From: Cyanidioschyzon merolae
Taxonomy: Eukaryota
Assembly: GCA_000091205.1 (NCBI GenBank)
Contig: AP006484.2
Strand: one strand, 5' to 3'
Length of the DNA: 64,000 nucleotides
Shown: in pieces, positions 15,101 to 63,870 of the stretch
Position numbering within the stretch: position 1 is the first letter of the stretch
How the letters are laid out: each line of letters opens with the position of its first letter
Program-made: the position numbers and the translations under genes
The notes under the pieces: generated by a model
The model's input: only the letters and a program-made list of their open reading frames with translations
Databases searched by the model: none
Told to the model about the DNA's origin: nothing

Positions 15101-15144
15101 TAGCTTGTTCCGGTCGGGTTTCCCGCCGCTACTGTGTACTGCCG

Positions 15145-21300: not shown

Positions 21301-22199
21301 TTCGATTTCCTTTTACTGATTTCCAGCTTCAAATAAAGCGGCCTCTCCTGTCCTGACAACTCCGTTGTCAGCAGTTGAAGGGTGCAAATAGCGGCGTTTA
21401 ACTCGCCTTTTCATAGCTTCTGGTTAATTTTGAAGCATTTCACGCACAGGCGAAATTTATTCTCTACACTGCACGTGCTTTTTTCATCATGTTTAGATAA
21501 CGCCTTGGCGCACCGTTTGCAGCTGTGAAACATCGATACGGCCAAGTGTTCCCATACATCCACTACAAATCCTCCTCCGGACGGTGCTCTGCGGCGCGCG
21601 AATCCTTGCTTCATCACTTTTAAAGTCCTTAACAGTGTAGACCACCTGGATGCCCTCTGTTTCAGCACCCAGTGCCGCGCGCCTGGATCATGGGCTCCCT
21701 CTGAGCATTCCCCTCGGCAAGTTTGCTGTGTGCTGTACGTGCAAGCGCATATTGCTCTATTCGATGGAGGATTTGTGGAACGCGATTTCACCCATTCTAA
21801 ACCAATTTCCGGAAGGTAAGTCCAGAGTGGAGAACAGATCGAGAACTTTGGATCTGTCTACGCTTCTTTCTTGCGAGGCTGGGACGCACCTTCCACGGGA
21901 AGCTATCTCAATTACGTCTTAAGTCCATTCCACGGCTCTTCTCCATAAAAAACAGAAGAACCGCAAGCTTCCGGGATCATGTCCTGTGAAAGCATCACGC
22001 AAGAGCCGAAAGCATTTTCGTATACAGCCAGAAAAAGAGAAGCATATCTTTATCAGGTAAAATCAGTTATTGGCATAACGGGTTTTTTGAAAGTTCGAGA
22101 TGAGCTTGAGACCATGTCGCCAAGGAGCGGCTTCGGGCTTTTTCTTTCCTCGTAAATCCGGCGACACGAATTGTCCCGCCAACGAGTGCGTTGAAATAG

Positions 22200-22430
22200 A
22201 AAGTTCGAAAGCTGAGAGCACGCATGATCTGTGCAAGCGACTCGTGAGGAACGAGGAAAACAGGACATTTTTTGGAACAAATTGTTTAGTATTATAGGTT
22301 ATTTTACGAGCCCTTGCTCGAGCGCGTCGCGAATCATCTTGATGACGGGAAGGCATCGAATTCCGGTGGCGGAGACTCGAGGAAGTCACCCCGCATACCT
22401 GATGCAGAATTTGGAAACTGCATTTTAGTT
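22200..22430 (+). repeat. Solo copy of the conserved 3-prime non-coding module of the TnpB/Fanzor-like element family
   Basis: Alignable by eye to 40945-41200 (Rep1a), 28640-28880 (downstream of copy D) and 37430-37570 (downstream of copy E). Shared core: TATTTTAcgAGCCCttGcTCGAGCGCGTCGCGAAtCATCTTGATgACGG...CATCGAATTCCGG...AGACTCGgAGGaaTCAC. Confidence 0.5.
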
Positions 22431-23080
22431 CGTGACCTCCTACAGCAGCACATCGAAGACAACTGCGGCGGATCTAAAAATCATTCGAGCAAAATACCAC
22501 AAGTCACGAACATCGTGATTAGTTCTGTGTTTCATTTCCATTTGACACTGATGTAGCCACGCACCGTTGCTCGCTTCACAGAAGGGGGCGTAGCTCGTGT
22601 CGTCCGCTAGCTCCAGTGCGAGAATGCCCAGTGGGTCCAACGCCAGTCGGCACGCAAGGCTTGTAAGCGAGAAAAGAGTCACTCTGCTGGTGAATTTACA
22701 CCGAGGCCAGAAGAACCGCCCTCATGCGGTGACTGCTGTGGAAAAAAAGGTCCAGACCCTGGCACTACGCTGATACCTCACCGATCCCTGTCGAGCATCC
22801 GTCACACCGTCGCACATAGAAACTGACCGGCACACGCACCTCAGATCGTACAGGAACGGGAACAAGTAGAACCGGATGGATCTCCAGGCATTCGAACGAG
22901 CACCTACATCCAGCGGCACTGCGGCGCAAGGCACATGACTTGAACAGCGAACCCGAAGCGCACGAGTGCACCATGCTTGAAATAGTCATTTTGTTCATGG
23001 TTACTTTGCAGGCTCATGATTCCTTTTGCCGATCGCTGCGTGACTCGGTTATACAGAGAATGCTAGACCGTCTTTTTTAT

Positions 23081-26654: not shown

Positions 26655-28900
26655 CATTCAACTCAATTCTGTTTCACACTGCTGTGTGGATTCGTATGCG
26701 TTTTCGGAATTTGTAACAGGCGATCGACATCACGATGCAATGTACCCTATGGATTGTAGACGAATTGCCAGTCGGATGTATTTATCACTGAACAGCGCAT
26801 GGAGGACTGCATTCCTCGTGCAGCTCAGCTGTACCGCGATACTTAGATGGTCGAGGAACTCTTACAGAACCAAGAACCTGCGCCCCATTGTAAAAAACTG
26901 ATATTCTCGAAGACTAATTTCGGTCGATGGCGGAGAACGACGTGTCGTTGAGTTCAATGAAAAGCAAGAATGGACGATAGTAGCCATCATTGTCGTCTCT
27001 GTAGTCCAGCAGCTTGTTCGTGTAGATCTGAAAACACTGGGATACAAGCGCCAACAAGAGTCCTGGTCCACGCACGGCTATCTTCCACCGAAATCGAAAA
27101 GACAGTGTTCCTGGAACGTTCTGGTCGGCACGATACGGGGATTCGTCAGTTCGTTTTCCCGGTCGATGATACTTCCCACGGACGAGACGGTGAGCGCGTT
27201 AAAGGGTATTCGAGGAGATGGAGTCCGTTCACTGTACGATCGAACTCGTGGATAGCGACCACGTCCTGTGTTCTGGCTGCAGTAGACTCAAGTTGCGGCC
27301 TCAGTTTCGCTTGTACAGAAGGTTCATCCAACCGCATCCACTTTGCCGAATCATTGAAGACTTTCCCTGATGTCTGGCGAAGTTCTTCTACTACACAACG
27401 TTGTATTTCTCAATTCCCCATGCGTTTGAGCTTTTACCGATTCTTTTGGAAAACAGCAGCTTTTTATTCCTCCGTACACTCCGTGGTGGGGGTCCACGGA
27501 AGGGCATTTTTTGTGCAAAGTAATATTCGCTGCACTGGGAAAGTCGCTAAAGCGTTCAGCGCAAGGTGACGCCAAGGTACATTCCGTCTTTCTTCCGCAA
27601 GTCCTTCTCCCCCGGGAAGGTCCTCACGTAAGAGTAGAAAGAAGTGCGTTCATTGTAAAGAAACAAAAACCCGAGGAAAAGTATTGAGAAGCAAGTCGGG
27701 GATCCCGGAGGCTTGGTGTCGCCGGATTTCCACAAAAAAAAATGTGAAAATCCTCTCCTCGCCGACCATCGAGCGAAGAAGAGCGAGTGACGAAGAGGAA
27801 GAAGAAATGTATTGGGGGATATGCAAGAAAAGATGTTTGTCCAACGGTACGATGACGAGACTGTAATGGCACAGAGGGCACGAGTTCTATGAATCCTTGC
27901 ATCGATGAGTTCCACCGGAGGCAATAAATACATAGAGCTCTTGAATCGGAACTTCAGTGCTGCCATCAACATTAGGAGATGTGCGATCCTGAAGACGAGG
28001 CTCAAAGAGCTGATGCGATCCAACACCATGGGATAGCCTCTCAGGTTCGAATTGTGCCAGGATAAACTAAAAGCAATAGCGGGCGGCCGGTCGAGAAAGG
28101 CTGGCAGGTGTCTGTGAATGGACACGTATTTACCATCCACGTTCGTGAGACATTTTTGTTTCACTGAAATTCATGTTTTTTGCACACACAAGCACACGCT
28201 GCGTCATTCGATAGAAAATTATCGGAAAGCGATGTTGTCCAAAACGGAATAAATGACGGGAGCAAAAACCAGACCCGAGAACGAGTCGAGAAACTGCGAT
28301 TCGTTAATGCTCCCCTCGTGTTAAGCGCTGATGCACCCTTCACCGTTAGCGATCACCTCGACGCCGCAATTCCCAACTCAAGACCAATCTCGATGCAAAC
28401 AGAACAGGAGGGAGCCTCTGCAAGCATATCCCTTTAGAGTTATTATGCAGCTTTTGAGTGCCGTTTGGTGCATAGCCATGAATGGACGCGTATTTTTCTG
28501 ACGAATTGAATCAATCATTTAACGTGACAAGTTTCGAGAACCTCCGGCTTGAGCTCGTAAACAAGCCGCCAATAAACTTAGTCGAGTATGCATTCTCGCC
28601 AATCCAGCGGCGCGAAATGCTGCCCCCACATATTGTCTTGAAGCACCAAGATCGAAAACTTGAAGCATGGGTGATTTGAATAGGCGACACGTAAGGAGTG
28701 GAGAGGACCATATACTAATACACTAGAATCGGGTACTTATTCCCATTATTTTACGAAATCTTGTCCGATTGCGTCGAAATCCACCTTGACTCCGGTGCAG
28801 TAACAAATTCCAGCAGCAAAGCATCAAACGAGCCACCGCGAAAAGACGTCTGAGAATGCTCGAATTCCTTTGATTTCGTAAGGCGTAATTGCTGCACCTC
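26655..28900 (+). mobile_element. TnpB/Fanzor-like element copy D (subfamily 2), degenerate ORF plus about 0.8-kb 3-prime non-coding region, inserted between the divergent HERC and ATAD2 genes
   Basis: Left end TTCAACTCAATTCTGTTTCACAC is homologous to the Rep2 left end TTCATCTCAATTTTGTCGCACCC. Internal ...KGIRGDGVRSL... and C-terminal LNRNFSAAINIRRCAILKTRLKEL (RuvC-III)...AGRCL*. The downstream region 28478-28900 carries the conserved 3-prime module. An internal 16-bp direct repeat GAATGGACRCGTATTT at 28117 and 28478 flanks a 345-bp segment. Confidence 0.55.
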
Positions 28901-29186
28901 GAATTCCAAGTGTATATAGTTCTATAAGATAAATAGGAAAGAACTGATCCGCTGGAACAACGTGAACAACTCAGTGTTCCGTTTTTTTCTGACACAGGTG
29001 TTGTCCCCTCTGAGGAGATCATGGGAGCCCGCCCCTTCTCTGCCACGAAACAGCACGATCGCGGTGTCACGCATGAATCGCCAAATGGCGCGCATCTTCG
29101 CCTTGCTGAAGCGTGCATGGTTCAGGTGCGCTCTCTGGGTCTGCATCCCAGCAACTTGAGGGACTTCTACGGCGATAGAGCGTCTC

Positions 29187-36457: not shown

Positions 36458-36689
36458 GGAACAAAGACCACTACACCCGCTCGAAGAGGATACTTAAATT
36501 TGCGGAGAAACAGATCGCTGCTTGCGCCATGTGCTACCCAATCACCAGTATGAACCATTTTGGAACCTAAATGTATATTTAGTTTCATTATAACCCCATG
36601 GCGGCACGTGCGGAGACTTTTGACCTGATCGTTGCTCCTTGCGTAAGGCGCTTGTAGTCTCCCAAATCAATCGTGCTCAACCCCCAGGT

Positions 36690-37600
36690 GCAAATAATCA
36701 AATGCTTTTGTCGCGGTTTAAGGCAGATGCATTCGATGGGCATTCATTTTCAAAAATTAACAATCCAAGGGAAAGGTATTGGCATGGAAGTCGAGGTTCC
36801 TGAAAGCTTGGTGTTGCCAGATCGGTGAAAAATCGGAAAAAACTTTTCTCCCAACAATCGAGCAAAGAAGAGCCAGTGCTTGAAAAGAAGTTGAAAGGGA
36901 GGCGGTCGAGAAAAAAAGTTTTGCCCAAAGGGACGATGACGAGACTGTAGTGGCACAGAGGGCATGAGTTCTAGGAATCCCTCCACTGGTGCGTACAAGC
37001 AGTAGCTAGAAACGCGTGTAATTCGTGAGCTGCGACTTAACCGCCGCCGTTAACACCAGGAGATGTGCGATGCTGAAGACGAGACCCTCAGAGCTGACGC
37101 GGACGAACTTTGTGGAGCAGCCCTTCTTGGATCGAATTGTACAAGGAGTTGAGGCGGAGAGCATGCTGCCGGTCAAAATGACTGGGAGGAGTCTGCGCGT
37201 GGGTAGATATGTGTGCTCCCAATGTTCCTAGAACGTTTATCGTTATGCTGAAGCGCATGTAAAAAGTAGTGTTGAATTCTTTCTTGTACAATAATGTGGT
37301 GCAATTTGCTGCACCCACGAGTTGAGATGAAAGAGAAAGATCAAAAACATTCAGAAATGCGATGTTTGCGCATACTGCACGTTAGGAAAGAAGAATGCCG
37401 GAGGTTTGTACGATGAATTGGATAATGACAGCAGTCAGTTTACGAACGCTCGGTCGAATGCATTCCAAATCATCTTGATTCTGGTGACGCTGTAAAGTTC
37501 AGCTGCAAAAATCGATGGAGCAACATCGAGAGCGAACAGAGATCCCTCGAAGTACTTATGAATTCCCAAGCCCTAATTGTAGCCCGTTGTATGCCAAGGC
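36690..37600 (+). mobile_element. TnpB/Fanzor-like element copy E (subfamily 2), internally deleted derivative
   Basis: Left-end-like AATGCTTTTGTCGCGG at about 36700 is joined directly to the ORF 3-prime portion (...GTMTRL... DLTAAVNTRRCAMLKTRPSEL = degenerate RuvC-III, ending ...GRSLRVGRY). It is followed by the conserved 3-prime module at 37430-37570. Confidence 0.5.
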
Positions 37601-38339
37601 TGTATAAAAGTTCCTTGAAACATCGAAAGTCCGGAATGGAGCGAGCTGTTCAGTGGTTAACTTAAATCTTAAACGGGTTTAGCACTGCGGTCGCATGGGC
37701 TATAACGCACTCCATGTCCATGCCGCCGTCCCTAGCATGCCACATCCTGCTCGTAAGCGGATGCTGAGCATTTACACAAGTTGATTAGTACGCATCGAAC
37801 AATCAATCCTTGCCAACGAAAGGGAGCTGATGCCTCCCCTTCAGCGCTCCGCATTTACAGATGGTTGCGATGAAAACGCTGGCAATTCTACTGGAAATCA
37901 CAGGACGGTGGAACAGGCTTCGTTTTACTCGAAGCACAACTCTGGTCACGTATTTCGCTCCGGCACTCTCACATTGTGGCCACAGAGCGTATCACTCACA
38001 GCTTGAAACGCGTGCTGGAGCCCATGCAGTATGCGTCTTCGGATGAATGAGCGCTGCGGAAGGTTTCACTCAGACGCCTCCCGGAGCTGTCCTGTTAACG
38101 GTTGAAATTCATATCATAGAGCAGAATTGTAAATCGAGCTCTTGCACCTCTTGTGGCACAGGGACTGATAAGCGCTTCGCCCTCAATGCTCTTTATTCAT
38201 TGCAAAAAGCAAAGCTCCCAAACGCTACTGGATTGAATGCGTACAATGCAGAACCAAGACTGTAGCGTACTCCCCGATGCTACGGCATCGACTGCCACTT
38301 TCATGCTTTACATCCTCAAATGCTGCTGCCAGCTGGGGT

Positions 38340-39851: not shown

Positions 39852-39889
39852 TGCTGCTGCACGCAGTCAAAATGGACGCCAGAACCGCA

Positions 39890-41297
39890 TCGAACGTGCA
39901 CTACATGAAATGTTTCCATCCATGGCATTATAGAGCGGAACGAGTTCCAGCGAGGTAAGACGGCCACACACAATCAAGCATGAGCGTCTTCTCGCTGTCA
40001 TCAACACAGGCTTTTGCCGGGTTCTTTGTGACGAGTTCCTTCGTCCCTCCCTTATATCCTTCTTTGAATACGTCGGTCTCCCCTTTCCCTCGGCATCTGT
40101 TGTCCGCAGACGGAGGAGGTTCATGGCAGCGTTACTGTCCAGACTCCGCACGTTCCGACTGTTGGCCGCACACTTCATGCGCACGCAGGCGTTGCAATCT
40201 ATTTATCGCTTACTGCACTCATTTTCTATGTTTACGGCCTCGGTGCGCCTCTCGCAGGGATGACACCTGCTTATGGTGAAATTCCCTCACATTTCCGCCA
40301 CATATTCTATCTAGAGCGCCGCCACGTAGCGCGCGAACGCGTGCTTCATCCGTCGGTATGTGCCCTTGACATGCACAGGAGGCTCTCTTCAGTGCCCCCC
40401 TCTGTTTGGTCGTCTGGTACGGTACCCCACGATCACGGGCTTGCTGTGAGCGATTCCAGGGGTGCGTTTTCTGTCCAGCGCACACGCGAGCACACGTTGT
40501 TCCATTCGATGAAGGATTCGTCGAATGCAATACTATCTCTGATGAAACAAGAGCCGGAAGCAAGGTCGAGACTGAAGAACAATTCGAAACGTTTCGATGC
40601 ATCTACGCTCCGTTCGTGCAACCAGGTGACGCACGCTTCACCCGGGGAGATCACAGCAATGACTAAAGGCCGAGTCCGGGACCCGTTTCCGCGCAAACGG
40701 AAACTGCGGGAGCCCCTGGGCATCATACCCAGTGAGATGTGTGGTGCCGTTGTCGAAAGCCGTTTCGTCGATAGCCACAAAGAGAGGAGGATTTTTCTCG
40801 CGAACGCGATCGATTATTTGACGTGAACAGCCCAGTGAAGTTGCAACACGAGCTTGTGAAATAGCAGTCGAAGGATGGCGTCTTGGCAAGCACTTTTCCT
40901 CGTCCATCCAGGGGCGCGACATGCTGCGCACGCGAGTTGCCCTGAAACAGAAAGATCGAAGACTTGAAGAATGCGTGATCTAGGCATGCTATGTGTAAGC
41001 AAAAGAGAAGTGCCGCGGCACGTACGCGTCGAAATGTTTTACGATATCGGCTATTTTATTAGCCCGCGTTCGAGCGCGTCGCGAACCATTGTGATCATGG
41101 TCATGCGAAGTATTCCCGGGGTAAAGACTCGGAGGCATCACATCGGAAAGACGTCCGCGGATTCTCGACTGTTTGCGAATCCTCACGCGGTTATCGCTGC
41201 TTATCGGATGTCGAGCATGTACATCCCAAAAGTTCGGAAAAAATGAATGGCAAGAATAGAGTACGCATGTCAGTTTCCTTTCTTAATCCAACACGAA
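39890..41297 (+). repeat. Rep1a: 1.4-kb non-coding repeat, homologous to the 3-prime non-coding region of the TnpB/Fanzor-like elements (a non-autonomous derivative); 46 bp upstream of the GRWD1 start codon
   Basis: About 99.5% identical to 47843-49250 (all ORF-track translations are identical apart from 1-2 residues). 40780-41210 aligns to 28478-28900 downstream of copy D, and the first 100 bp align to 28125-28200. It contains the conserved module. No convincing protein-coding content. Confidence 0.7.
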
Positions 41298-41931
41298 TAT
41301 CGAGCTTGAAACCCTGTCCTGGACTCTCTCTCGAACAGAAACATCGTAGGGAGAGTATGGATGAAGGGCCTTTTACGCAATATCTGAATATGCGGAGCAT
41401 CTACCATCGTCAATCTGCATCTTAGGCCTTGGAGTATGCAAACACGATGACCAAGGCGAAGCAGAGCGAACGCGATCGATTTTTCGAAGCGGAACATGAA
41501 AATTTCCACTGTTTAGTGTAGAATCAAAATGGGTTTTCACAAGTTTCCAGCAGTGCAGAACAGTTGGTCTTCATTTTCAACGCAAACGAAGGCGCGGAGT
41601 ACTTGCGTTCCAGTCTATATATTTATTGCACCTACTAAATCGGCCACAACATGGAACAGTAATTTTAACAGTACGGAAAATCACCCTTCCCGCAGAGCTT
41701 ATTCGTCCCGACAAGAGGCCAGCACCTGCTAAACCGTATGGCGAATTCAATCCAAAAATTTTTCTGACTTCCAGCGTCAAGAACGCAGGGCCTACGTATC
41801 TTGAGGTTAAAATGTTCAAGTCGAATTTCACTCGAAATACACGGTTCTCGGGTAAGATAGGAATCAATGGTTCCAGAGTTCTCAAAATCGGGATCGAATA
41901 AACAAAAAGAGTGGGACTGCGATCTTCTTAG

Positions 41932-43290
41932 AGTTTTCATCTCAATTTTGTCGCACCCGCGCTGCGGTGCGTACAAAGAGTGATCGAAATGACTATGCAA
42001 GATACCATAGATATCGAGGTCGGATTGTCCGTAAGTTACATTCTTTACTAAACCGTGCATGGATCGCTGCATTCCTCCTTCAGGTACGTATACCATAATA
42101 TTCAGATGGTTGAGAAGCACTGAAAGAAAGAAGTATATGCACTCCGCGTCGAAAAGCGATATTTCCAGCGACTACTTGGTGGCGATGCTAGAAAATAACC
42201 CGTGGATCGAGTTAGGGAAAGCAAAACCTGCGATAATGGCTGCCACAGGCGTCCTTCTTTCCCACAAGCTTGTTCGTGTGATCCTAGAACACTGGGATAC
42301 AGTCTCAAAGAACGAGTCCTAGTTCATGCGCGGCCATCATCCACCGAAATCGGAACTATAGTGTTCCTGGCACGACGCGATCCGTAGAAAGCAGAAGATC
42401 GTCGGTTTGTTTTTTCAGTCGATGAGACTTGCTTCGGACGACACGGTCGGAGCGTATATGGGCGTTCGTGGAGCAGGGCACCCATTGTGTGTATCATCTA
42501 ACTCGAAGAGAACGATCACATCATCATCTGTTCTAGATGCAGTGGATTCATTTGGCGGCCTCAGTTTCGCTCGTGGTGGAGGCTCATGCAACAGCACCCT
42601 CTTCTTTGAATCATTGAAGACTTTTCCCTGATGTCAAGCGTAGTCCTGCTATCGGACAGCGTGACATTTTACCATTCCCTTGCGATCGAGCCTCTGCCGA
42701 TTTTATCCGGATAGGTCTGCTTGCCATTCCTCCGTGCTCTCCGTGACTAAACCCCATCGAAGAAGCGCTTTCTATCGTGAAACGTAACCATCGCTCCATT
42801 GGGTGAAGCGCTGAAGCGTTCAGCACACGGTGACACACCAGGGCACATGTCGTCTCGCTTCCGCAAGTCCTTCTTGATCCGTGAAGATCCTCACTTAAGG
42901 GCATGAAGAAGTGTGTTCGTTTTGAAGAAATACAATACCCGAGAGATGAGCTGGGGTGCACACTTCAGAACGTCGAGATGAAGAAAAGCCAGCGGAGCGC
43001 TTCGCTGGTAGAAAAGCACGGAGTGTTGAGAGAGCAGCAAATGGCGCAGACGGCACGTGTTCGAGGAATCCCGCCACAGTTGTGCTCAACGAGAGGCAAA
43101 AAAAACGCATGAAATTCTTGAACCGAGACTTCAATGCCGCTATCAATTTCAGACGGTGTGCGTTGCTGAAGACGGAACCCGAGGAGCTGAGGAGGTATAA
43201 CTTTGTGCGGCAGCCTCTCCCGGCGGAAGTCTATGAGGTGAAGATGAAAACGATAGCAGTGGGCCGGTTGAAAGAGACTGGGAGTTGTCC
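41932..43290 (+). mobile_element. Rep2a: TnpB/Fanzor-like element copy F (subfamily 2), left end plus degenerate ORF. Diverged homology to the 3-prime region continues to about 43800
   Basis: 100% identical at translation level to 55942-57290. Left end TTTTCATCTCAATTTTGTCGCACCC. Frame-consistent homology to copy D (...LVRVILEHWDTVSKNES*...FFQSMRLASDDTV...). C-terminal ...DELGCTLQNVEMKKSQRS...KKRMKFLNRDFNAAINFRRCALLKTEPEEL (RuvC-III)...GRLKET. Several in-frame stops. Confidence 0.65.
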
Positions 43291-44703
43291 GCGAATGGGT
43301 ATTAGTTCACCTTGGAAAGAACTGAAACTATCGCTCCACCGATCGTATGCAGCGGCCGCTTTGTGCGTTCCCTCTTTTCAATATATTGAGGCAAAATAAC
43401 ACTCCGGAGGAGCTTTGATAGTTCGCTTTCGTCTGAAGACTTTCATCAGAGTACAGTGGGCTCACTGTTTGAAGCTCTCGCTGAAGATAGCACTTATCAG
43501 TCATTGATTGCAACCGTTCCCAAGATCGGATATCGACTGTTCGGAGATGATCTTGTTCCCGGTACTATTGGGCATGCTTAAAAATACTTCCGCACACTAG
43601 CGCACTTTACGGAGCAGATTTTCGTCCCGCTGCAGCTGAATCTCTATGGAAGTATCACAATTTTAGAGGAGCCGCAAGAAACCCAGCACCACTCATTACT
43701 ACGAGGGAGCTCTTTCCATTCGAAGCACGCGTTCGACCTGCGTTTGCCTCGCACGCGTAAGCGTGACGGCTGACGCGCTCCTACAGCAGCGACTCTCCAT
43801 ACTCAGGGCTGCTGGGCCTTTGAAGAGCATCAACGGGCGGCCAGAATAGAAGACACATCGCATGTAAGGCGTCCGACATGCGCTGTCCGCATGCTCTATG
43901 TCGTGAAAATACCAATATCGAACCAGGAAACAAGCACTCCGAACATCATGGGCATCGAGCAACGACTACAGCGAAGACCTTTCCACGCATGAGACTAACC
44001 TTTTCAATCCAGCCCGAAAATGGAATTTCATTCAGTAGAAAAACCGTGAAGTACACGCTTGTCTCGGTTATATATGCATGCAAGCATTCATGTGTGCGAG
44101 CACTCGCGCATCTACGAGCAGCCTCTTGGTGATAGAAGCGGCACACCATCCCGCTGTGGCAAGCCGGCAGTTGGATCCACGAGACCTCGAGCTGATGCGC
44201 TTGAAAGCGCACAGTGCAGCCGTTCTACCACCATGAAGCGATCGCGGCTGGAGCGCCGCAAGCATCCACGATGCGCCGGGTACATTCAAGGTAGCTGGAT
44301 CAAGCAAGCGTTTCCCTCAAACGGGAAGGCTAATTCGGTGCTGGTGTATTGTAGGTACTTCTGTGAGGGAGCAGAGGTCTCGTCCCTGGTACTGGCAGGA
44401 TGCGCGTTCATGCGAGAATATGGACACATGTATCCTTGCCACCCTAGTAGACTCGGACGGCCAGAGGCGCGTCGCGCACCGATTCCGGTCTGTGGATCCG
44501 GGAGATGCGCTCGCATGCTGTCGATTGGGTTCTGCAGCCACAGTCGTCCAGAATACGGATCGCTGACTTTTGCGGTGTATCTATTTTTAGGTTCTAAGGA
44601 TTCGGGTGTTTTTTTGCGAGTTGTGGTTCACTTACAGCATAGACACGCCGTAAACGCTTGTCGCGCGCGGCACCTGTCGAACGTCCGAACTTTTTACAAT
44701 CCT

Positions 44704-45798
44704 ATGAAATTCGGCAAGAGGTTGAGGGAGACGGTCGAAAGGGCCCCCGCTGAGTGGAGGGGTCTCTTCATTGACTACAAGGGCCTGAAGAAACTACTGA
44801 AAAATGAAGTAAGCTTTTGCCAGCAGCCAAGCGCTGAAAAGGCGATCACGGTTGTCTCTGAGGCTACGCAACAAGGCGTGAACGCAAATAGTGCCGCGGA
44901 AGCGGAACCTGCGCAGGGGCCCAGCGAGAGTGCCCTCGTACCCGAGTCCAGCGTCCCACCAGGGGAGCACCAGGGCGAGTCGGTGGTGTGTGCTGCGCGA
45001 ACTGGAGAGTTCAGAATCCAGGGGCACGTTGGGGCCTCAAAAAAGCGCGTGCGGGTGTCGTGCTCACCGCCAGTCTCAAGCACTGCTGACTCTGACTCAG
45101 ATACCGATATTTCGGATGCACCACCTCTGGAGTTTTTGGAACAGGTCAATAGAGAGCGCATCCCGCGAAAACAAGATAGCCACGGATTTTTTGACTTGCT
45201 TCATCAAGAGCTGGATAAGGTTAATGATTTCTTCCTTGAGCAGTTGGAGGATTTAATTATCCGGAGCGAGATCTTACAAAGAGATACGGCAAATTTTTTC
45301 GTTTTATGCAAATCTCAGCGAAGTTTCCACTTTAGAGATATTGAAAATCTATCGCGTAGACTTTACAGACTTCATGATGACCTCGTGCTTCTTCAAAACT
45401 ATGCTGCCGTGAACTATTTGGGCTTTCGAAAAGCCCTCAAGAAATATGACAAGAAGAAGAATACTCGGCTGCGGAGAACATATCTTGCTGGTGTTCTTGG
45501 GACGCCTTTTTTCCTGCAGAGCGAGAATTTGCGATCTTTGATCTTGGAGACAGAGCGTCGGTTGAGTTTATTACAGCATCTTGCATCATCGCAGAGTGAC
45601 AATCAGGATACAAGTCCCGCGAAGATGGCGTCGCCTTCTTTCAGAGAATCAGCCACTGAAAAGGATATCCGAGAAACTGCGCACGAGGAACATCCAGAAC
45701 CAGTCAAAGTCAGGCAAGCGGAAAGCCTAGATTCTGAAAAATTATCTGATTCCGGCTCGAGATTGAGTCAGAGAGAAGCTGCTGTTCATCAGGGTTGA
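44704..45798 (+). CDS. SPX-domain protein (SPX-only class)
   Basis: Begins with the canonical SPX N-terminus MKFGKRL...EW...FIDYKGLKK and has the second/third SPX subdomain (LHDDLVLLQNYAAVNYLGFRKALKKYDKK). The ORF track extends upstream to 44059 in frame, but SPX domains start at MKFGK, so the start is set at 44704. No additional C-terminal domain. Confidence 0.75.
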   Translation: MKFGKRLRETVERAPAEWRGLFIDYKGLKKLLKNEVSFCQQPSAEKAITVVSEATQQGVNANSAAEAEPAQGPSESALVPESSVPPGEHQGESVVCAARTGEFRIQGHVGASKKRVRVSCSPPVSSTADSDSDTDISDAPPLEFLEQVNRERIPRKQDSHGFFDLLHQELDKVNDFFLEQLEDLIIRSEILQRDTANFFVLCKSQRSFHFRDIENLSRRLYRLHDDLVLLQNYAAVNYLGFRKALKKYDKKKNTRLRRTYLAGVLGTPFFLQSENLRSLILETERRLSLLQHLASSQSDNQDTSPAKMASPSFRESATEKDIRETAHEEHPEPVKVRQAESLDSEKLSDSGSRLSQREAAVHQG

Positions 45799-45930
45799 TA
45801 CAATTATTGTATCGACAGGAGCTGGTCCAAGCATCATAGATTATGCGTCAGCTGATCGCGAACTTGCTCAAACACGTACGTGCTCGGAACTATGATTGCA
45901 TTTCGTTGTGCGTATCCGCTTTCCGCTGCG

Positions 45931-47016
45931 TTACTCCATTGAAGTGATCCCGTCTTGTCGATCTTGAGAGTCTCGTTTGCGCAAATTAGCCATGAGGAAT
46001 CCAACGAGTACGAGAGACGCCCCGAGCAAATACATTGAGCCATATTTTGTGCGTCTTAAGATTGCATCGGCCAGGACCGAGAAAGGAATTGTCAGCGACA
46101 AGGCTAAGGACGCCGCCAGAGCAGAAGCGTAGCAAATGGCAAGCGCCCACAGGTAATTGCTCAGAACGCCACCTACCAGAGCGTTGGTAAGCATTAACCA
46201 TAACGTCCTCCGAGGGGGAAAATCGATGCTTTCTACTCTGCAGAAATGGCAGATAAGAACGATCGGCCATCCGAATGCGAGACATATTCCCCCGAGTGAC
46301 CCTAAAAAACGACTCACTTTCAGCTCATGCTGCAGTGCAAACTGTCTCTTAATAAGAACAGTTTGAAATGCGTAAAGTATGGCGCCCAAGAACGCTAAGG
46401 CATCGCCCAGCGCTGTTCGCGTGCCTGCAGAAGACGCATCGGACGCAGATACCAAGCACAGGCCTCCAACATTCAGCACGACAGCAAGGATGTGGAGCCT
46501 GCCGAAACGCTCAACTTTGAGGAGCGAGCCGAAGATGAGCACGAACACGCACGAGAGCGACGAAATGATGGACGATGACGCAACTGAAGTGTAGGTCAAG
46601 CTAAGGTTGTAAAGACAGTTGGACATAAACCAGAATGGAGCAATTTTCCAGCTGCTTTGGAGCGTTTCTCCAATACAGCTTCGAAGCCGTTCAGCAAGCC
46701 CCTGTTGAAGGGACAGCTGGTTCCCCAGGTTCTGAGAAGCTGTCTCAAAATCACGCGTTCCCGGCTCGACAGATTTTCTGAACACAAAATCTCTCTCCAC
46801 AACCGTCTCCGTTGCGTTTTGAAGCTGCCCAGCTCCAAATTTACAAGGAGGAACCAAAAAAAGCAGAACGAACAGCGACTGCGAGAGGTAGCTGTAAAGA
46901 ACGGGCTTTGAAAATGAGTCTTCCCGAAATACTATTTGGATAAGCTCACTCGACGCCACCCAAAGAACGGCAACGGCAATAAGTAACAGAATCCCATACA
47001 GATGGGTATAAGCCAT
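45931..47016 (-). CDS. EamA/DMT-superfamily transporter, SLC35F5 / Thi74-like
   Basis: Ten hydrophobic segments and diagnostic stretches (NCLYNLSLTYTSVASSSIISSLSCVFVLIFGSLLKVERF; YLWALAICYASALAASLALSLTIPFSVLADAIL) matching the SLC35F3-5 family. Confidence 0.7.
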   Translation of the reverse strand: MAYTHLYGILLLIAVAVLWVASSELIQIVFREDSFSKPVLYSYLSQSLFVLLFLVPPCKFGAGQLQNATETVVERDFVFRKSVEPGTRDFETASQNLGNQLSLQQGLAERLRSCIGETLQSSWKIAPFWFMSNCLYNLSLTYTSVASSSIISSLSCVFVLIFGSLLKVERFGRLHILAVVLNVGGLCLVSASDASSAGTRTALGDALAFLGAILYAFQTVLIKRQFALQHELKVSRFLGSLGGICLAFGWPIVLICHFCRVESIDFPPRRTLWLMLTNALVGGVLSNYLWALAICYASALAASLALSLTIPFSVLADAILRRTKYGSMYLLGASLVLVGFLMANLRKRDSQDRQDGITSME

Positions 47017-47842
47017 GATCCAAGATACGAGTGAAGTTTAGCCAAGGTTTTCAGTGCTCTGCGTCATGGTCGAGCTGCGTTAAACAGAAGAAACTTGTTT
47101 TGTCAAATTTAACTAGACACCTAGGTGGACCACGGCGTCTCGCGGGATTCGGATGAGTAGTTCTGTGGCTCGCCTCGACTGTATCAATCCGCTGGTCGAC
47201 GTAGCCTCCATGAACTTGACGAGGATTCTGGCAACGCAGGGATAAAGAGCGGTCTCGTTTCCTCGAAAGACGCTCGTTACGAAAGTAGCATTCATTGGGA
47301 GAAAGCCGCTAAATCAGAGTTGACGTTGAATGCTGCTCGCTCAGGTCTTTTGTGCTCCCTGCTGAGCATTAACTCGCTTTAGAGTTCCGACATTTTCGGT
47401 CAATTTCCGCTATTTCATCCGCTTATTTCTGGCAAACTTTTCCGCTCTGAGCTGCTTTCGATCTGGGTAGCCAGCGTTTATCCCGTGCGAGAATCGCTTC
47501 TCACAGGAAGCCACAGATTGCTGTTCTCGACCAACGGAATGTCCGTATGACAGTAAACCTGTGGGACGCAGAAACCAGCTCGTTCCAGGCTGTGCAAATC
47601 GCTACTTTGTATGGTTTAAGTTTGATGAATCCTCTCTGAATCCTCTATACATGCAAATGCGAAAACCCGGCTTTCAGGAAAGGAACCGTAGATCCTCCGC
47701 AGAAACCTACATATACCACAAGCTCCTGACTCGTATCAGCGCCAGCAATAGAGTTAAGATCGACCAAGCGTGCCTTCTAGAATCGGGCTCGCTGTAAAAG
47801 CTCTAAATGGCACTGGATGCGCTGCGGCATGCGATACTCGAA

Positions 47843-49250
47843 GAGCACATGCACTGCATGAAATGTTTCCATCCATGGCATTATAGAGCGGAACGAGTTC
47901 CAGCGAGGTAACACGGCCACACACAATCAAGCATGAGCGTCTTCTCGCTGTCATCAACACAGGCTTTTGCCGGGTTCTTTGTGACGAGTTCCTTCGTCCC
48001 TCCCTTATATCCTTCTTTGAATACGTCGGTCTCCCCTTTCCCTCGGCATCTGTTGTCCGCAGACGGAGGAGGTTCATGGCAGCGTTACTGTCCAGGCTCC
48101 GCACGTTCCGACTGTTGGCCGCACATTTCATGCGCACGCAGGCGTTGCAATCTATTTATCGCTTACTGCACTCATTTTCTATGTTTACGGCCTCGGTGCG
48201 CCTCTCGCAGGGATGACACCTGCTTATGGTGAAATTCCCTCACATTTCCGCCACATATTCTATCTAGAGCGCCGCCACGTAGCGCGCGAACGCGTGCTTC
48301 ATCCGTCGGTATGTGCCCTTGACATGCACAGGAGGCTCTCTTCAGTGCCCCCCTCTGTTTGGTCGTCTGGTACGGTACCCCACGATCACGGGCTTGCTGT
48401 GAGCGATTCCAGGGGTGCGTTTTCTGTCCAGCGCACACGCGAGCACACGTTGTTCCATTCGATGAAGGATTCGTCGAATGCAATACTATCTCTGATGAAA
48501 CAAGAGCCGGAAGCAAGGTCGAGACTGAAGAACAATTCGAAACGTTTCGATGCATCTACGCTCCGTTCGTGCAACCAGGTGACGCACGCTTCACCCGGGG
48601 AGATCACAGCAATGACTAAAGGCCGAGTCCGGGACCCGTTTCCGCGCAAACGGAAACTGCGGGAGCCCCTGGGCATCATACCCAGTGAGATGTGTGGTGC
48701 CGTTGTCGAAAGCCGTTTCGTCGATAGCCACAAAGAGAGGAGGATTTTTCTCGCGAACGCGATCGATTATTTGACGTGAACAGCCCAGTGAAGTTGCAAC
48801 ACGAGCTTGTGAAATAGCAGTCGAAGGATGGCGTCTTGGCAAGCACTTTTCCTCGTCAATCCAGGGGCGCGACATGCTGCGCACGCGAGTTGCCCTGAAA
48901 CAGAAAGATCGAAGACTTGAAGAATGCGTGATCTAGGCATGCTACGTGTAAGCAAAAGAGAAGTGCCGCGGCACGTACGCGTCGAAATGTTTTACGATAT
49001 CGGCTATTTTATTAGCCCGCGTTCGAGCGCGTCGCGAACCATTGTGATCATGGTCATGCGAAGTATTCCCGGGGTAAAGACTCGGAGGCATCACATCGGA
49101 AAGACGTCCGCGGATTCTCGACTGCTTGCGAATCCTCACGCGGTTATCGCTGCTTATCGGATGTCGAGCATGTACATCCCAAAAGTTCGGAAAAAATGAA
49201 TGGCAAGAATAGAGTACGCATGTCAGTTTCCTTTCTTAATCCAACACGAG
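47843..49250 (+). repeat. Rep1b: second copy of the 1.4-kb non-coding Rep1 repeat, offset +7,953 bp from Rep1a
   Basis: Near-identical to 39890-41297. Lies between the SLC35F5-like gene start region and the DTD gene 3-prime end. Confidence 0.7.
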
Positions 49251-49718
49251 TGTAGCGTCTCGATGCCACGAAATTGTATTCTCTCCCGGACACGAAACTA
49301 GGATGCTCAATGTCGTGTTTTCCTGAAAGACCGTTTGAGGTTCCTCTGATCGACTTCATATTATCCTATCGATCCTGACAATCTTGTGCTATAGACGGAG
49401 CGGATTCTGGTTCACGTGTTGCTCCAAAAACAGAGGTTTATATTGTTTTTCTACGACTCCGAATCTTTCTGCGAAATCGGAGAAATGGTGCTTTCTGCAG
49501 CTGGTACTGGTTCAATCTCGCTCTCGCAGAGAAGCAGGGTGCCAAGTTTCGCTTCGGAGAGTGGCTTACGAAATCAATATCGTCTCATTCACGTCTCGAA
49601 CGTTCATGCGGAAAACATTATGATGTCCGTTGAATATTTTCAGCTGAGAAAGAAATCCTGATCTTTCGTTCTGTAAAACAGTGCTCAGCAGTTTCTGTCA
49701 GCATCTCATTCAGAGTGT

Positions 49719-50990: not shown

Positions 50991-53900
50991 AACGATACCG
51001 CCGTGTGGAAATCGTCTCCGCGAAGCGTCGCGAGCGAAAAGGAAACTGCATTGTGTCGCACTCTGCACCATCCTGGTATCTGCTTCAAGTTGCGCACGCT
51101 GCTCCTTTAAAGTTGGTTTATTTTCGGCAATCAACCCTCTATGCTCGTTGCAGAAGAATACTGCGATCGCGAGGAACTCCCACCCTCGAGGAATCATATC
51201 ACAATGACTGCGATGTTGCTCCATCCTCTCGTGCTTCCTCGATATTACTTGCGCAGTCGTTTAGAAAGCTACTGTACTGAGAAATTTTCAACAAGTTAGG
51301 CGACGGTTGAAAACAGCACTGAATCTAGTTGGGCTGCGTACACGCACGGAAACGGCAGGAATTGCTCAGCGTGCTGCTCGAAGCGGGAGAGCAGTTCGCC
51401 ACCGGTTTCGGACTAATGGAACACTGGACTGCGCTCTATTCTCCTGCTTTTCAAGCTTTCAGAACTTCTTTAAATGTGCAGCCTCGTGACTCGAGTGCAG
51501 GAATAAGGGCTTGCGAATTAAAATGTGGTTTTACAGTTTACGGAAGTCTTTCCACGGAGGCCTCTTCGACTCTTTGCCGATGGAACTCGATGTCCACGAA
51601 ATCAAGATGAAGCGCTACCTTCTAATAAGGGTTTGTAACATAAAGGATATCATTATCCAGTTCATATGCCCAAGCCTTCGCTCGTCCCCTTTCCTTACAC
51701 GTAGCATGGTCAATCCACGAAGTCTTCAAGTCTTGAATCATTCTGTGTTTAGGCAACTCTAGCGCGCAACATATTGCGCTGCTGTGTCGTCTAGGAAAGA
51801 GAATTCAACAGTGTCCCTTGACGACTTCTTCACAAGTTCAGAGCGAAGTCTCATTGAACTTATCACGACGAATAATCGATTCCGTTAGATAGAAAAATCG
51901 GTCCCTCTCTGCGGCGACCGGCGATACTGCATTCGACAGGAGAATGATACCTCTCAGGATGTGTGCGCCTAGAAGCGCCGGTCAATTCTGCTCGCAAGCG
52001 CAGGTAACTTGGACTCGGATCTCAGTCGTCGCAAGAATCGCTTCCAGTAATGCGTGCGTCTCCGCCTTCAGTGAAGCGAGCGTTGACAAATCGAAATTCC
52101 GCTTCTATTTCTCCAGCCAGGATTTTTCCTTCCGTTGCTTGTTTCATCATGGACAATATCGAGTTCTACAATTCATTCCTAGAATAGAACGGATTGCGCT
52201 TTCAAGTATAGCGACTAGAATATTCGCCGAGGGAGTCGCTCAGAATAAACTCGTGATAGCAGGGTACGGTACCGAACTTGGAAACTGAGAGAAGCGCCTG
52301 TGGAAGTCTTAAATACATGCCACGGAAATGCACCGAGCCATGAAGCAAGCGTTCACAAGTCGCATGTCGGCACTTGGGGAAGTACGTGTGGTGAACGTAC
52401 GGGACCAACCGAACGCAGCCAGGTCCCACCACTGCGAAGAGCTCACCGAGGATGTGTTTTAAGAAGTTGAAAACGGCAATTGGTACCTAAATAGAAAAAA
52501 CATCCTCCTGTACATGAAAGAGTCAACAACAGGTGGAAGCAGGGAGACAGGGAATTTAACGTTGCTACCAGCGTCATTTGACTGTCTGAATCGGAACTGG
52601 GGAAAGTAAAGACCAACATATTTAGAGCAGGAGACCATAGAAAGGAAAAGAAGCTGTCCCTGCGAATGCCGGCAAAAGCCTTTGTTAAAGACCGCGAGAC
52701 GAGAACCAAACTTTGATAGGAATTTCCGAGCGAGCCATGTGGAACACTTTCGATCTTAGTCTCACATGAATGTACTGCAGATGGTGGGCACGCCCTTTAT
52801 AATGAATAAATGTCTGATAATGCCTCTTTACAACTTATATTCAGGAGATTCTAGAAGAAGCAACCGTGCCGTGGATCTTTGATACTGTAAGTGGGAGGAG
52901 ATTTGGAACTCCTACCTCTTCATCCTCTTGACTAATCGCGCACAAAAGCACTCCGACACTTTAACTTGACTAGCTACAACAGACTAATATTTCGTAACCT
53001 CAGGTTACCCCTGGCTCATCTTCAAAGAAAATAAATTTTTCCAGGAGGTACTAAATATGGACAACGTCCAAGAAAAATTCAAAATACGTCATCGAAATCG
53101 CCCTGCTGCGAAAATTAGAAATTCGCTCAGATCTGAAATTTTTGAAAGGCAAATTTCGCTCCCGTGTGCCTTAATAGATGTCTCCCAACAGAATGATTTA
53201 ATGTATTCATAAGCTCAGCCCAAATCGTTCCGGCCTGCGTGAAAACTGATAATTAATTTTTCTTCGTATTCAACGATTAGACTCAACACTGGGCTCGTCG
53301 AACTTGACCATCGTAAAATTTTGCTGCTTCTGTTGATTATATAGGATTCGTTTTTACTGGACCGTCTGCCAAGATCTATACGCAACTAGTGAGTATGGAA
53401 CCTTTACCGCATACTGAGTGCCAGTGGAGTCTAAGTTAATCTTTAATCTTTTTTTCAGGCTGAGGGCCTGCAGCCTTGTTTCTGAGAAAAATACCTGTCA
53501 GAGACCCCGTTGAAACTACGGTGAGCGGTGGAACCATCAAGAGTTACTCTCGGCATCGTTGCGTTTCTCCATATAGAACGCTTTTGGAGAATCCGGCCAA
53601 TAATGAGGGAACTGCGTTCTGAGACTTGACGGAGATTGCTCGAAAAACAAAAAAAGTATTATTGTCATGCGTGGTTCGAACCGCGTCAGATATTCGTGCG
53701 CCTCTTAATGCCAAATGTGGTAGTCGGTGTCACTATCGCATGCTCGCATCCCATCCTGGCTATCTGGTAATGATTTGAGCCTTCGCAATTACTAGTTGAA
53801 TTGCATCTATCCAAGCAATTGGTATCTCAGAAATCCTTTCAGATCATCTCGTGGAATTACACACTTCGAAATAAAACTCAATAAATCCATTTGCGAGTAC

Positions 53901-55941: not shown

Positions 55942-57290
55942 GTTTTTCATCTCAATTTTGTCGCACCCGCGCTGCGGTGCGTACAAAGAGTGATCGAAAT
56001 GACTATGCAAGATACCATAGATATCGAGGTCGGATTGTCCGTAAGTTACATTCTTTACTAAACCGTGCATGGATCGCTGCATTCCTCCTTCAGGTACGTA
56101 TACCATAATATTCAGATGGTTGAGAAGCACTGAAAGAAAGAAGTATATGCACTCCGCGTCGAAAAGCGATATTTCCAGCGACTACTTGGTGGCGATGCTA
56201 GAAAATAACCCGTGGATCGAGTTAGGGAAAGCAAAACCTGCGATAATGGCTGCCACAGGCGTCCTTCTTTCCCACAAGCTTGTTCGTGTGATCCTAGAAC
56301 ACTGGGATACAGTCTCAAAGAACGAGTCCTAGTTCATGCGCGGCCATCATCCACCGAAATCGGAACTATAGTGTTCCTGGCACGACGCGATCCGTAGAAA
56401 GCAGAAGATCGTCGGTTTGTTTTTTCAGTCGATGAGACTTGCTTCGGACGACACGGTCGGAGCGTATATGGGCGTTCGTGGAGCAGGGCACCCATTGTGT
56501 GTATCATCTAACTCGAAGAGAACGATCACATCATCATCTGTTCTAGATGCAGTGGATTCATTTGGCGGCCTCAGTTTCGCTCGTGGTGGAGGCTCATGCA
56601 ACAGCACCCTCTTCTTTGAATCATTGAAGACTTTTCCCTGATGTCAAGCGTAGTCCTGCTATCGGACAGCGTGACATTTTACCATTCCCTTGCGATCGAG
56701 CCTCTGCCGATTTTATCCGGATAGGTCTGCTTGCCATTCCTCCGTGCTCTCCGTGACTAAACCCCATCGAAGAAGCGCTTTCTATCGTGAAACGTAACCA
56801 TCGCTCCATTGGGTGAAGCGCTGAAGCGTTCAGCACACGGTGACACACCAGGGCACATGTCGTCTCGCTTCCGCAAGTCCTTCTTGATCCGTGAAGATCC
56901 TCACTTAAGGGCATGAAGAAGTGTGTTCGTTTTGAAGAAATACAATACCCGAGAGATGAGCTGGGGTGCACACTTCAGAACGTCGAGATGAAGAAAAGCC
57001 AGCGGAGCGCTTCGCTGGTAGAAAAGCACGGAGTGTTGAGAGAGCAGCAAATGGCGCAGACGGCACGTGTTCGAGGAATCCCGCCACAGTTGTGCTCAAC
57101 GAGAGGCAAAAAAAACGCATGAAATTCTTGAACCGAGACTTCAATGCCGCTATCAATTTCAGACGGTGTGCGTTGCTGAAGACGGAACCCGAGGAGCTGA
57201 GGAGGTATAACTTTGTGCGGCAGCCTCTCCCGGCGGAAGTCTATGAGGTGAAGATGAAAACGATAGCAGTGGGCCGGTTGAAAGAGACTT
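55942..57290 (+). mobile_element. Rep2b: second copy of TnpB/Fanzor-like element copy F/G (subfamily 2), offset +14,010 bp from Rep2a, truncated at the 3-prime end
   Basis: All ORF-track translations are identical to the 41932-43290 set. Similarity to Rep2a ends at GRLKET, after which this copy reads WRRL* (stop at 57302-57304) while Rep2a continues into diverged 3-prime-region sequence. Confidence 0.65.
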
Positions 57291-57585
57291 GGAGGCGCCT
57301 CTGACTAAGTGTTATTTTAATCTTCCTGGTGGTGGAATGTTTTTAGTTTTACTGAGCCTATGGTGCAGATTCCACGATGATTTCGGATACGATTTTTCGT
57401 CGTTGCACTTGCGAGGGTGCACCGGTCAGAAGTAGAGCCGCGAACTTTCCGCTGTTTAAGACGCCGAATAAGTTTCCGTGGGTAGAAGGGCATCGTTTGC
57501 TTCTTTGTGTCGACCGGCCAAAAGAGTGGAGCCTGTGAGAGGTACGTCCACCACGACGAGGGATCTGTAGGGCAGAAGCCTGCCA

Positions 57586-63639: not shown

Positions 63640-63870
63640 GGTCTAGCACATGCACTCAGCTCGTATGCTCGACGAACGTACAATCTCGTTCAGTTGCATT
63701 AAGTGAAGTTCTATTGCATGCACTCAGCTCGCATGCTCGACGAACATGCAATCTCGTTCAGGAGCACAAAGGAAAGGTCTACTGCATGCGAGCGACTCTT
63801 GTTTTGGACTAACATCCGAAATGGCTCTGGGGTACTGTGTCAAGGTCTCCTGCATGCGAGCGACTGTGTC
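63640..63870. repeat. Short tandem repeats (two roughly 63-bp units, then two roughly 45-bp units ending TGCATGCGAGCGACT)
   Basis: Direct reading: GCACTCAGCTCG(T/C)ATGCTCGACGAAC(G/A)T(A/G)CAATCTCGTTCAG occurs twice (63650-63770), then ...TGCATGCGAGCGACT(C/G)T occurs twice (63780-63870). Confidence 0.5.

Follow-up and report, generated by a model that had tools for sequence, protein, structure and literature searches.

A duplicated relic of a mariner-type element carrying a Fanzor1 remnant upstream of RRB1 in Cyanidioschyzon merolae

The 64,000-nucleotide stretch of Cyanidioschyzon merolae contig AP006484.2 analysed here (the window) contains a 1.4-kb repeat, Rep1, in two copies that an initial annotation, made from the sequence alone, had described as a near-identical non-coding pair. 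The first copy, Rep1a, lies upstream of a minus-strand GRWD1-like gene that corresponds to BAM78887.1, is annotated as 'similar to ribosome assembly protein RRB1', and which we take to be an essential ribosome-assembly gene. The second, Rep1b, lies between an SLC35F-like gene and a DTD gene, as had been proposed. The SLC35F-like, DTD and IMP1 proteins are identical to BAM78889-91 of C. merolae 10D (457,013-bp record), and Pfam searches bore out the earlier gene calls for HECT/RCC1, AAA-bromodomain, Kelch, WD40/CAF1C and SPX proteins, as well as those for EamA/SLC35F, D-Tyr deacylase, S26 peptidase, Sel1 and Myb proteins. Alignment with MAFFT and self-BLAST gave 99.43% identity for Rep1a and Rep1b over 1403 bp (39894-41296 and 47847-49249), with eight mismatches and no indels (0.57% divergence) at an offset of 7,953 bp, in agreement with the pair first reported. 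The tract can be extended by two bases (A/G and T, with one mismatch) to 39894-41298 and 47847-49251. This identity is far above the chance level. The distance from Rep1a to the RRB1 start codon at 39767 is 126 nucleotides (nt) rather than the 46 bp given initially, and in every strain sampled this start codon has the 1.4-kb relic 126 nt upstream of it.

Both copies are real and do not result from misassembly, a doubt that had been raised when the pair was first described. All four junctions (RRB1/Rep1, SLC35F/Rep1, Rep1/s1 and Rep1/DTD, where s1 is the unique 635-bp spacer at 41299-41933) are present in independent metagenome and Sequence Read Archive assemblies from strains about 99% identical to 10D, that is, from close relatives. 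In several samples a contig of 1402 bp, equal to Rep1, stands by itself, as is expected when a two-copy repeat collapses during assembly.

In order to place Rep1 among related sequences, we used a sample of 80 loci around Fanzor1 genes from metagenomes, about 1.09 Mb in total, which was searched with a Rep1 model (nhmmer). This gave 73 matches, most of them complete units of about 1.33-1.4 kb; they occur in either orientation, and the distance to any Fanzor1 gene is usually 1-2.5 kb. The 24 non-redundant full-length copies have a median pairwise identity of 56% and a maximum of 61%, and each is 68-76% identical to the majority consensus. On the evidence of these alignments, this star-like divergence is that of one ancient burst, and Rep1 is to be regarded as a member of a separate old family with units of about 1.35 kb. 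In the loci sampled from a single assembly the family accounts for about 5% of the DNA, with about 30 full-length copies per Mb, and in the window it accounts for 10%, as six copies or fragments; a sensitive blastn search with Rep1 located relatives at 52702-51415 (inverted), 21240-22389, 28182-28986 and 37298-37654. By rough extrapolation there would be a few hundred copies per genome, an order of magnitude only, as the sample is biased to Fanzor1 neighbourhoods. A local clade test showed the copies within the window to be no closer to one another than to copies elsewhere.

The consensus ends in a terminal inverted repeat (TIR) with 25 of 27 positions matching, which reads TACACCC[AG]TGTCAGA[AT]TAAAATGGAAC. 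Relics of this repeat are recognisable in Rep1a and Rep1b once the consensus is known; from the raw pair, with the copy so decayed, none had been visible. The right TIR relic of Rep1b spans 49226-49252 and is followed by TA at 49253-54; in Rep1a the final 1-3 nt of the right inverted repeat are missing. The dinucleotide TA stands directly outside the left end in 10 of 25 copies and outside the right end in 7 of 25, with about 1-2 expected by chance, a frequency compatible with decay of an original TA. A motif resembling 'ACGTGCAC..CAT' was also observed 21-23 nt outside the left inverted repeat in three window copies (21210-21236, 39894-39916 and ~52716-52740); it may reflect chance or a target preference, since these three copies form no closer clade.

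Between its inverted repeats, the minus strand of the consensus reads '…LFVAIDETAFDSSMIPLTGYAPRGSR…FIMDNIAFHKSS…YSP' and, after YSP and in another frame, '…KKPVIVGYGTGRGNGG…WEHLTTAKCHRCEG…CMKC…RNRDLNAAINILRLL'. The first of these segments matches the Pfam family DDE_3 (PF13358, over profile positions 3-115 of 146; E 1.7e-8 and 34.9 bits, with the cutoff at 28.6) and the second matches Cas12f1-like_TNB/OrfB_Zn_ribbon (PF07282; E 9.1e-8 and 32.6 bits, with the cutoff at 26.3). The motif [TS][TS]-x-x-C4 zinc finger-x(5,50)-RD, given for Fanzor1 by Bao & Jurka (2013, PMC3627910), is present in the consensus as '…WEHLTTAKCHRCEG…CMKC…RNRDLNAAINIL'. The Fanzor relic of Rep1a is 50% identical to the family consensus peptide, contains four in-frame stops, and has LD in place of RD in the decayed motif. 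The transposase of the family is truncated past the YSP region and frameshifted, with stops in every copy; an intact catalytic DDE/D triad and a complete open reading frame (ORF) are absent from all family copies, and no intact DDE_3 gene of the family was seen in the sampled related loci. The N-terminal half of Fanzor and the RuvC-I aspartate are absent from the consensus, the DDE_3 fragment standing in their place. The initial view that Rep1 holds no credible ORF applies to the present-day copies, neither of which has a working one. Because the DDE_3 front and the Fanzor tail lie between the TIRs, Rep1 is, as read from its consensus, non-autonomous and derived by internal deletion from an element of the mariner type that had carried a Fanzor1 gene.

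Intact relatives of the Fanzor half of Rep1 occur in metagenomes (P0145, 551 aa; P0146; P0147), with the sequence '…KPVIIGYGTGRGNGGGHKGEPSVPVKAMYRA…WEHYTTQKCHRC…RNRDFNAAINIL'; these proteins keep the full N-terminal half and the RuvC-I motif ('GLDPGRVNLY'). The intact P0145 gene lies at positions 5569-7224 of a 7.8-kb contig (L110, JGI 3300035702), where its neighbours are RNA ligase, 2H-SAK and Peptidase_S74 genes. This virus-like context fits the idea that viruses spread Fanzors.

An open frame of 188 codons on the opposite strand of Rep1 (ORF188) was considered as a gene and rejected, as it shows no codon periodicity, has no homologues and runs antisense to the transposase and Fanzor relics. 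Compared with three decayed copies, its substitutions are even across codon positions; compared with the sole other copy with an open frame, there is a weak excess at third positions (37/35/46%) together with frame-breaking gaps. A database search for homologues of ORF188 gave just its own 99%-identical allele. The two copies that are open in this frame (positions 2261-2776, minus strand, of locus L008 and 40260-40826, plus strand, of the window) are about 58% identical, are both open for 171-188 codons, and share the same stop; this shared antisense frame is most likely a by-product of the codon pattern of the sense strand.

Rep1a and Rep1b form the only cluster in the family sample with two genomic sites at an identity of at least 94%. 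They are 73% identical to the consensus, as distant from it as all other copies, and a pair as decayed as its family points to the duplication of an old dead copy and not to a young active lineage. Around the near-identical Rep1 copies of relatives, the same four flanks only were found (15+23 contigs). The identity tract starts at 39894 or 39897 and the left inverted repeat at 39917; the 20-23 bp beyond this repeat are not family sequence and were found nowhere else in the sample. At its other end the tract closes with …CACGA[A/G]T, after which Rep1b continues with G, TA and GCG, as does the consensus, and Rep1a with ATCGAG. Since the end of Rep1b is that of the family and the end of Rep1a diverges from it, Rep1b would be the resident copy, from which Rep1a was derived. 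ATCGA stands on either side of Rep1a, at 39889-93 and at 41299-303, and the chance probability of this is roughly 0.004-0.01 given the ambiguity of the boundaries. Integration of a mariner element is expected to give TA, which Rep1a itself does not have (TC…; ATCGA repeat). From the shifted tract and a 5-bp ATCGA rather than TA, we infer copying of a repair or recombination type, in the direction from Rep1b to Rep1a.

Taken together, these results show Rep1 to be a dead Tc1/mariner relic of an old family and make it probable that Rep1a was copied from the Rep1b locus by a break-repair or recombination route. A mariner element carrying a Fanzor gene would have undergone an internal deletion that joined the front of the transposase to the back half of Fanzor1 and kept the 27-bp TIRs. 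This derivative spread long ago, with Rep1b as one such old insertion between the SLC35F-like and DTD genes. A break at a site upstream of RRB1 may then have been repaired by copying from the nearby Rep1b template, including 20-23 bp of its left flank, whether as a templated insertion or by overwriting of prior content; Rep1a would thus not be a product of the family's own cut-and-paste transposition. The two copies may still be exchanging sequence.

A number of observations weigh against this interpretation. The 5-bp ATCGA repeat is seen at one locus, with tract boundaries ambiguous by 2-3 nt. An empty-site allele (RRB1-…GCATCGAGCTTG…-s1, with a single ATCGA) was not found among 23 contigs and two variants, and the contigs of relatives upstream of RRB1 all run into Rep1. 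The copy survey covers about 1.09 Mb of related loci and not the whole 10D genome, such that near-identical copies may exist elsewhere, and short-read metagenome contigs break at young repeats, which skews the sample to old copies. Finally, the bases past the right end of the Rep1a tract (ATATCGAGC) agree with the family end (GTGTAGCGC) at 5 of 9 positions, a weak sign that conversion overwrote an independent resident copy.

This last observation leads to the chief rival explanation, that Rep1a and Rep1b are two independent old insertions 8 kb apart which gene conversion, or concerted evolution, has homogenised along nearly their whole length. We regard this as possible but less probable. The family is dense (six copies or fragments in 64 kb), making two independent copies at this distance unremarkable; the tract boundaries fall within about 25 bp of the element ends, and the alleles at the eight variable sites are mosaic among strains. 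Independent insertions should not, however, share the non-family sequence that extends 20-23 bp outside the left inverted repeat, and at about 56% identity family members are too dissimilar to recombine by ordinary homology, unless Rep1a and Rep1b were kept similar from their insertion onwards.

Conversion is retained as the chief rival because a second, interleaved pair in the region bears exactly this signature; homogenisation of that pair by recombination, within the same 17 kb, also speaks against fresh transposition as the origin of the Rep1 pair. The pair, RepXa and RepXb, had escaped the initial annotation; self-BLAST gave one mismatch in 1351 bp between 41934-43284 and 55944-57294. RepX has full-length members at other loci and belongs to a family of about 1.4 kb distinct from that of Rep1, with its last ~350 bp corresponding to positions 2737-3084 of CMe-1A, the published Fanzor1 element of C. 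merolae. The family extends about 90 nt past the end of the identity between RepXa and RepXb. Scored against a model of six other family tails, the RepXa and RepXb tails gave 8.7 and 3.4 bits, above all 2000 shuffles, and they are dissimilar to each other; a first tail model, dominated by CMe-1A ends, gave no signal, which appeared once the model was confined to the RepX subfamily. No significant similarity emerged when the flanks of the Rep1 and RepX pairs were aligned pairwise. Tails that are family-like but mutually unlike indicate, as far as the sequence can tell, that RepXa and RepXb are two independent old insertions with an internal tract homogenised by gene conversion.

With two interleaved pairs there are two Eulerian segment orders for the region, that of 10D being RRB1-Rep1-s1-RepX-SPX…Rep1-DTD…RepX-Myb. 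Contigs of relatives that traverse the repeats (window 39.3-57.3 kb) mostly follow the alternative order RRB1-Rep1-DTD…Sel1-RepX-SPX-SLC35F-Rep1-s1-RepX: one (L015) runs from RRB1 through Rep1 to the DTD side, another (L012) from SLC35F through Rep1 and s1 to RepX, and a third (L005) from Sel1 through RepX to SPX. A single contig (L014) has the 10D order, and one scaffold (L013) joins Rep1 to RepX solely across a run of N. The alternative order is either a recombinational polymorphism or the result of chimeric short-read joins. Excision by recombination between the Rep1 copies, followed by re-entry through recombination between the RepX copies, would convert one order into the other. Phasing of the eight variable Rep1 sites in the relatives' contigs gave a mosaic that was uninformative for segment order. 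The flanking ATCGA, if real, pairs the RRB1/Rep1 with the Rep1/s1 junction and thereby supports the order of the 10D reference.

A recent true transposition, in which an active transposase acting in trans moved the Rep1b relic or a master copy upstream of RRB1, is unlikely. Rep1 is a discrete unit with recognisable inverted repeats, a direct repeat flanks Rep1a, and near-identical copies are under-sampled in short-read contigs. The flanking repeat is nevertheless 5 bp long and not TA, the unit extends 20-23 bp beyond one inverted repeat and stops short of the end of the other, no further near-identical copy and no intact DDE_3 gene of the family was seen in the sample, and the pair has decayed as much as the rest of the family.

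We also consider it very unlikely that Rep1 is a functional non-coding module under selection, either a promoter or enhancer shared by RRB1 and the SLC35F-like gene or a non-coding RNA gene. Both copies do stand upstream of minus-strand genes (at 126 nt and 830 nt) and are kept in all sampled strains. However, there were no Rfam matches at gathering scores and no tRNAs in the window, and RNAalifold gave no consensus pairs, and no omega-RNA-like fold, for the 3' 240 nt of the family in 19 copies, an absence that is in itself uninformative, as the copies decay neutrally. The other copies show no visible constraint, with substitutions even across codon positions and along the element, and selection fails to explain identity across all 1400 positions. 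Nothing indicates a present function for Rep1, the effect of which is positional: with Rep1a 126 nt upstream, the RRB1 promoter would lie within those 126 nt or be borrowed from the relic.

Similarly little credence is given to a route linked to Fanzor itself, in which a guide-bearing full-length transcript was copied by reverse transcription or as a repair template, or guide-directed cleavage was followed by repair from Rep1b. Read on the sense (minus) strand, the copy takes in the 5' inverted repeat from its first bases onward and stops about 20 nt beyond the Fanzor-side end. It is just past this end that the omega RNA guide is located in TnpB/Fanzor systems, and a 5-bp duplication is expected from a staggered cut of the Cas12/TnpB type. 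If true, this route would represent a eukaryotic trace of nuclease-assisted transposon copying.

The initial annotation had derived Rep1 from the 3' non-coding region of a nuclease element present in the window as copies A-D. Six-frame reading of copies A-C revealed RuvC-I, zinc-ribbon and 'DRDFNAAxNI' motifs; the nuclease, which has 227 relatives in metagenomes, is the published Fanzor1 protein CMe-1, as shown by matches to the protein and to its consensus. Searches of the PDB and a local Pfam with the CMe-1-type nuclease found nothing. Bao & Jurka (2013, PMC3627910) described CMe-1A as an element of no known class that lacks inverted repeats and has about 150 copies, with an identity of about 80% to the consensus. 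The 3169-bp consensus maps to 10-2711, 14043-12995 and 14111-15168 of the window, with fragments elsewhere. Descent of Rep1 from this element is most improbable. Two truncated Rep1-family fragments speak for it, at copy D and at 36.7-37.7 kb, each following a 3' end of the CMe-1A type within 64-78 bp. The earlier inference had its source in copy D, of which the supposed non-coding 3' region is a truncated Rep1-family element adjoining such an end. This copy covers just Rep1 positions ~500/587-1391 (28174/28182-29002 in the window), and the start of Rep1, which had been aligned to 28125, is not represented in it. In blastn no part of Rep1 matches the published CMe-1A consensus. Rep1-family DNA lies within 400 bp, in either orientation, of 5 of the 108 CMe-1A/RepX-type 3' ends in ~1.1 Mb (about four distinct loci), and none was found downstream of copies A, B and C or of intact CMe-1A genes on long contigs from other loci. 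Rep1-family copies of full length are found by themselves, 1-2.5 kb away from Fanzor1 genes, with inverted repeats of their own and their own gene relics on the opposite strand. The CMe-1A protein is a distant homologue of the Rep1 Fanzor relic (25% identity, E 0.001). What survives of the earlier derivation is the non-autonomous nature of Rep1 and its link to a TnpB-like nuclease; the origin from the CMe-1A 3' region does not.

It is hardly credible that the pair is an assembly artefact or the long terminal repeats (LTRs) of a retroelement: direct repeats 8 kb apart are superficially LTR-like, as noted initially together with the lack of gag/pol between them, and the interleaved repeats permit two assembly paths, but all four junctions recur in independent assemblies, there are no TG..CA ends and no duplication around the pair (left flank GAACG/ATCGA, right flank GTAGC), and between the copies lie only RepX and ordinary host genes, SPX and SLC35F, in opposite orientations.

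Table 1. Coordinates of Rep1, RepX and associated features in the window.
Feature	Position	Strand	Remarks
RRB1/GRWD1 gene, 475 aa, BAM78887.1	38340..39767	-	First in-frame ATG at 39767
Rep1a, putative secondary copy	39894..41298	- (strand of decayed genes)	20-23 bp of Rep1b left flank plus decayed mariner/Fanzor element
Rep1b, putative resident old copy	47847..49251	-	Right end runs on ...CACGAGTG, TA, GCG, as family consensus end
Left TIR relic, Rep1a	39917..39941		CATCCATGGCATTATAGAGCGGAAC; Rep1b counterpart 47870-47894
Right TIR relic, Rep1a	41273..41298		Final bases replaced
ATCGA, left half of candidate 5-bp target-site duplication of Rep1a	39889..39893		Read from sequence
ATCGA, right half of candidate 5-bp duplication	41299..41303		Start of unique 635-bp spacer s1
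Fanzor1/TnpB C-terminal-half relic	39975..40526	-	GYGTG strand, CxxC...CxxC zinc ribbon, RD-NAA-N motif; Rep1b 47928-48479
DDE_3 (mariner/IS630-type) transposase-front relic	40436..40939	-	…LFVAIDETAFD…GY..G…, frameshifted; Rep1b 48389-48892
ORF188, spurious open frame	40260..40826	+	Antisense to decayed genes; identical in Rep1b 48213-48779
Full-length old Rep1-family copy	51400..52715	+	Inverted relative to Rep1a/b, ~58-61% identical; decayed genes on plus strand
Full-length old Rep1-family copy	21237..22567	-	Oriented as Rep1a/b, ~55-60% identical
Truncated Rep1-family copy	28174..29002	-	Family positions ~500-1332; beside CMe-1A-type end of 'copy D'
Truncated Rep1-family copy	37267..37684	-	Family positions ~906-1335; beside internally deleted CMe-1A derivative
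RepXa, apparently homogenised tract in old ~1.4-kb non-autonomous element	41934..43284	+	Own diverged tail 43285-~43375
RepXb, partner of RepXa	55944..57294	+	Own diverged tail 57295-~57385

Further traces of CMe-1A and its relatives were observed in the window. Two CMe-1A 3' halves, 12995-14043 (minus strand) and 14111-15168 (plus strand), stand head to head with 75% mutual identity; they are 83-86% identical to the consensus and fill all the space between two long ORFs placed divergently. At 36655-37200 there is an internally deleted CMe-1A derivative, in which consensus positions 788-969 are joined to 2833-3088, with a truncated Rep1-family fragment next to it. Weak, distant matches to the CMe-1 protein at 61597-62175 (plus strand; 25% over 220 aa) and 19142-19991 (minus strand; 21-27%) are possibly relics of further Fanzor lineages. 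Self-BLAST also revealed an imperfect tandem repeat at 63649-63865, with a period of about 68 bp and 74% identity between shifted copies.

Comparison with known systems places Rep1 close to the Fanzor1-carrying Tc1/mariner elements PUl-1, PUl-4 and PGv-1 (Bao & Jurka, 2013, PMC3627910), which have TIRs of about 24-33 bp, TA duplications, DDE_3 and Fanzor1 in one element, and non-autonomous relatives. The Rep1 consensus shares these traits in decayed form; it differs as a 1.35-kb derivative in which a transposase front is fused to a Fanzor back half, neither being complete, and no autonomous parent was found in the C. merolae-like DNA sampled. The family also differs from the sole Fanzor1 family reported for C. 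merolae. This family, CMe-1A / TE-N2_CMe (Bao & Jurka, 2013), which includes window copies A-C as well as the right part of RepX, is like Rep1 an old (~80% to the consensus), abundant and mostly intergenic component of the same genome; unlike Rep1 it has no inverted repeats and is of unknown class, and the two share no DNA similarity and are usually not adjacent. As in internal-deletion elements resembling transposable elements of the miniature inverted-repeat type (MITEs), both termini of Rep1 are kept, the coding region is deleted or fused, and copy number is high, although Rep1 is larger than typical MITEs; no MITEs are reported for C. merolae by P-MITE (PMC3964958). The near-identity of one tract in an ancient family, with ends that lie off the element ends, resembles ectopic conversion or repair-templated duplication, as does the neighbouring RepX pair with its diverged tails. 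The 5-bp repeat flanking Rep1a and the one-sided carry-over of flank are unlike simple conversion, and the mechanism here is read from the sequence alone.

All of the components of this locus are of known kinds, namely mariner-borne Fanzor1, deletion derivatives, and local duplication or conversion. The Rep1 family in C. merolae, its abundance, and the nature of Rep1 as a duplicated relic appear to be new in the literature searched, in which Repbase was not covered; mariner-borne Fanzor1 is not reported for C. merolae by Bao & Jurka (2013), the sole paper found on Fanzors in this organism. By library-based masking C. merolae has been called repeat-poor (PMC11050394). A puzzling 'non-coding repeat' becomes an identifiable element in these analyses, and the promoter context of RRB1 would have been remodelled by the arrival of Rep1a 126 nt upstream of the gene. 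The genetics of C. merolae relies on homologous recombination. Tracts of 1.4 kb at 99.4-99.9% identity, separated by 8-14 kb, provide substrates for ectopic recombination, and, being interleaved, they leave two equally valid assembly paths through the region. The underlying biology is ordinary transposon decay together with local duplication or conversion, and these data show that C. merolae carries a second Fanzor-related family, mariner-borne and ancient, which accounts for about 5-10% of the sampled sequence.

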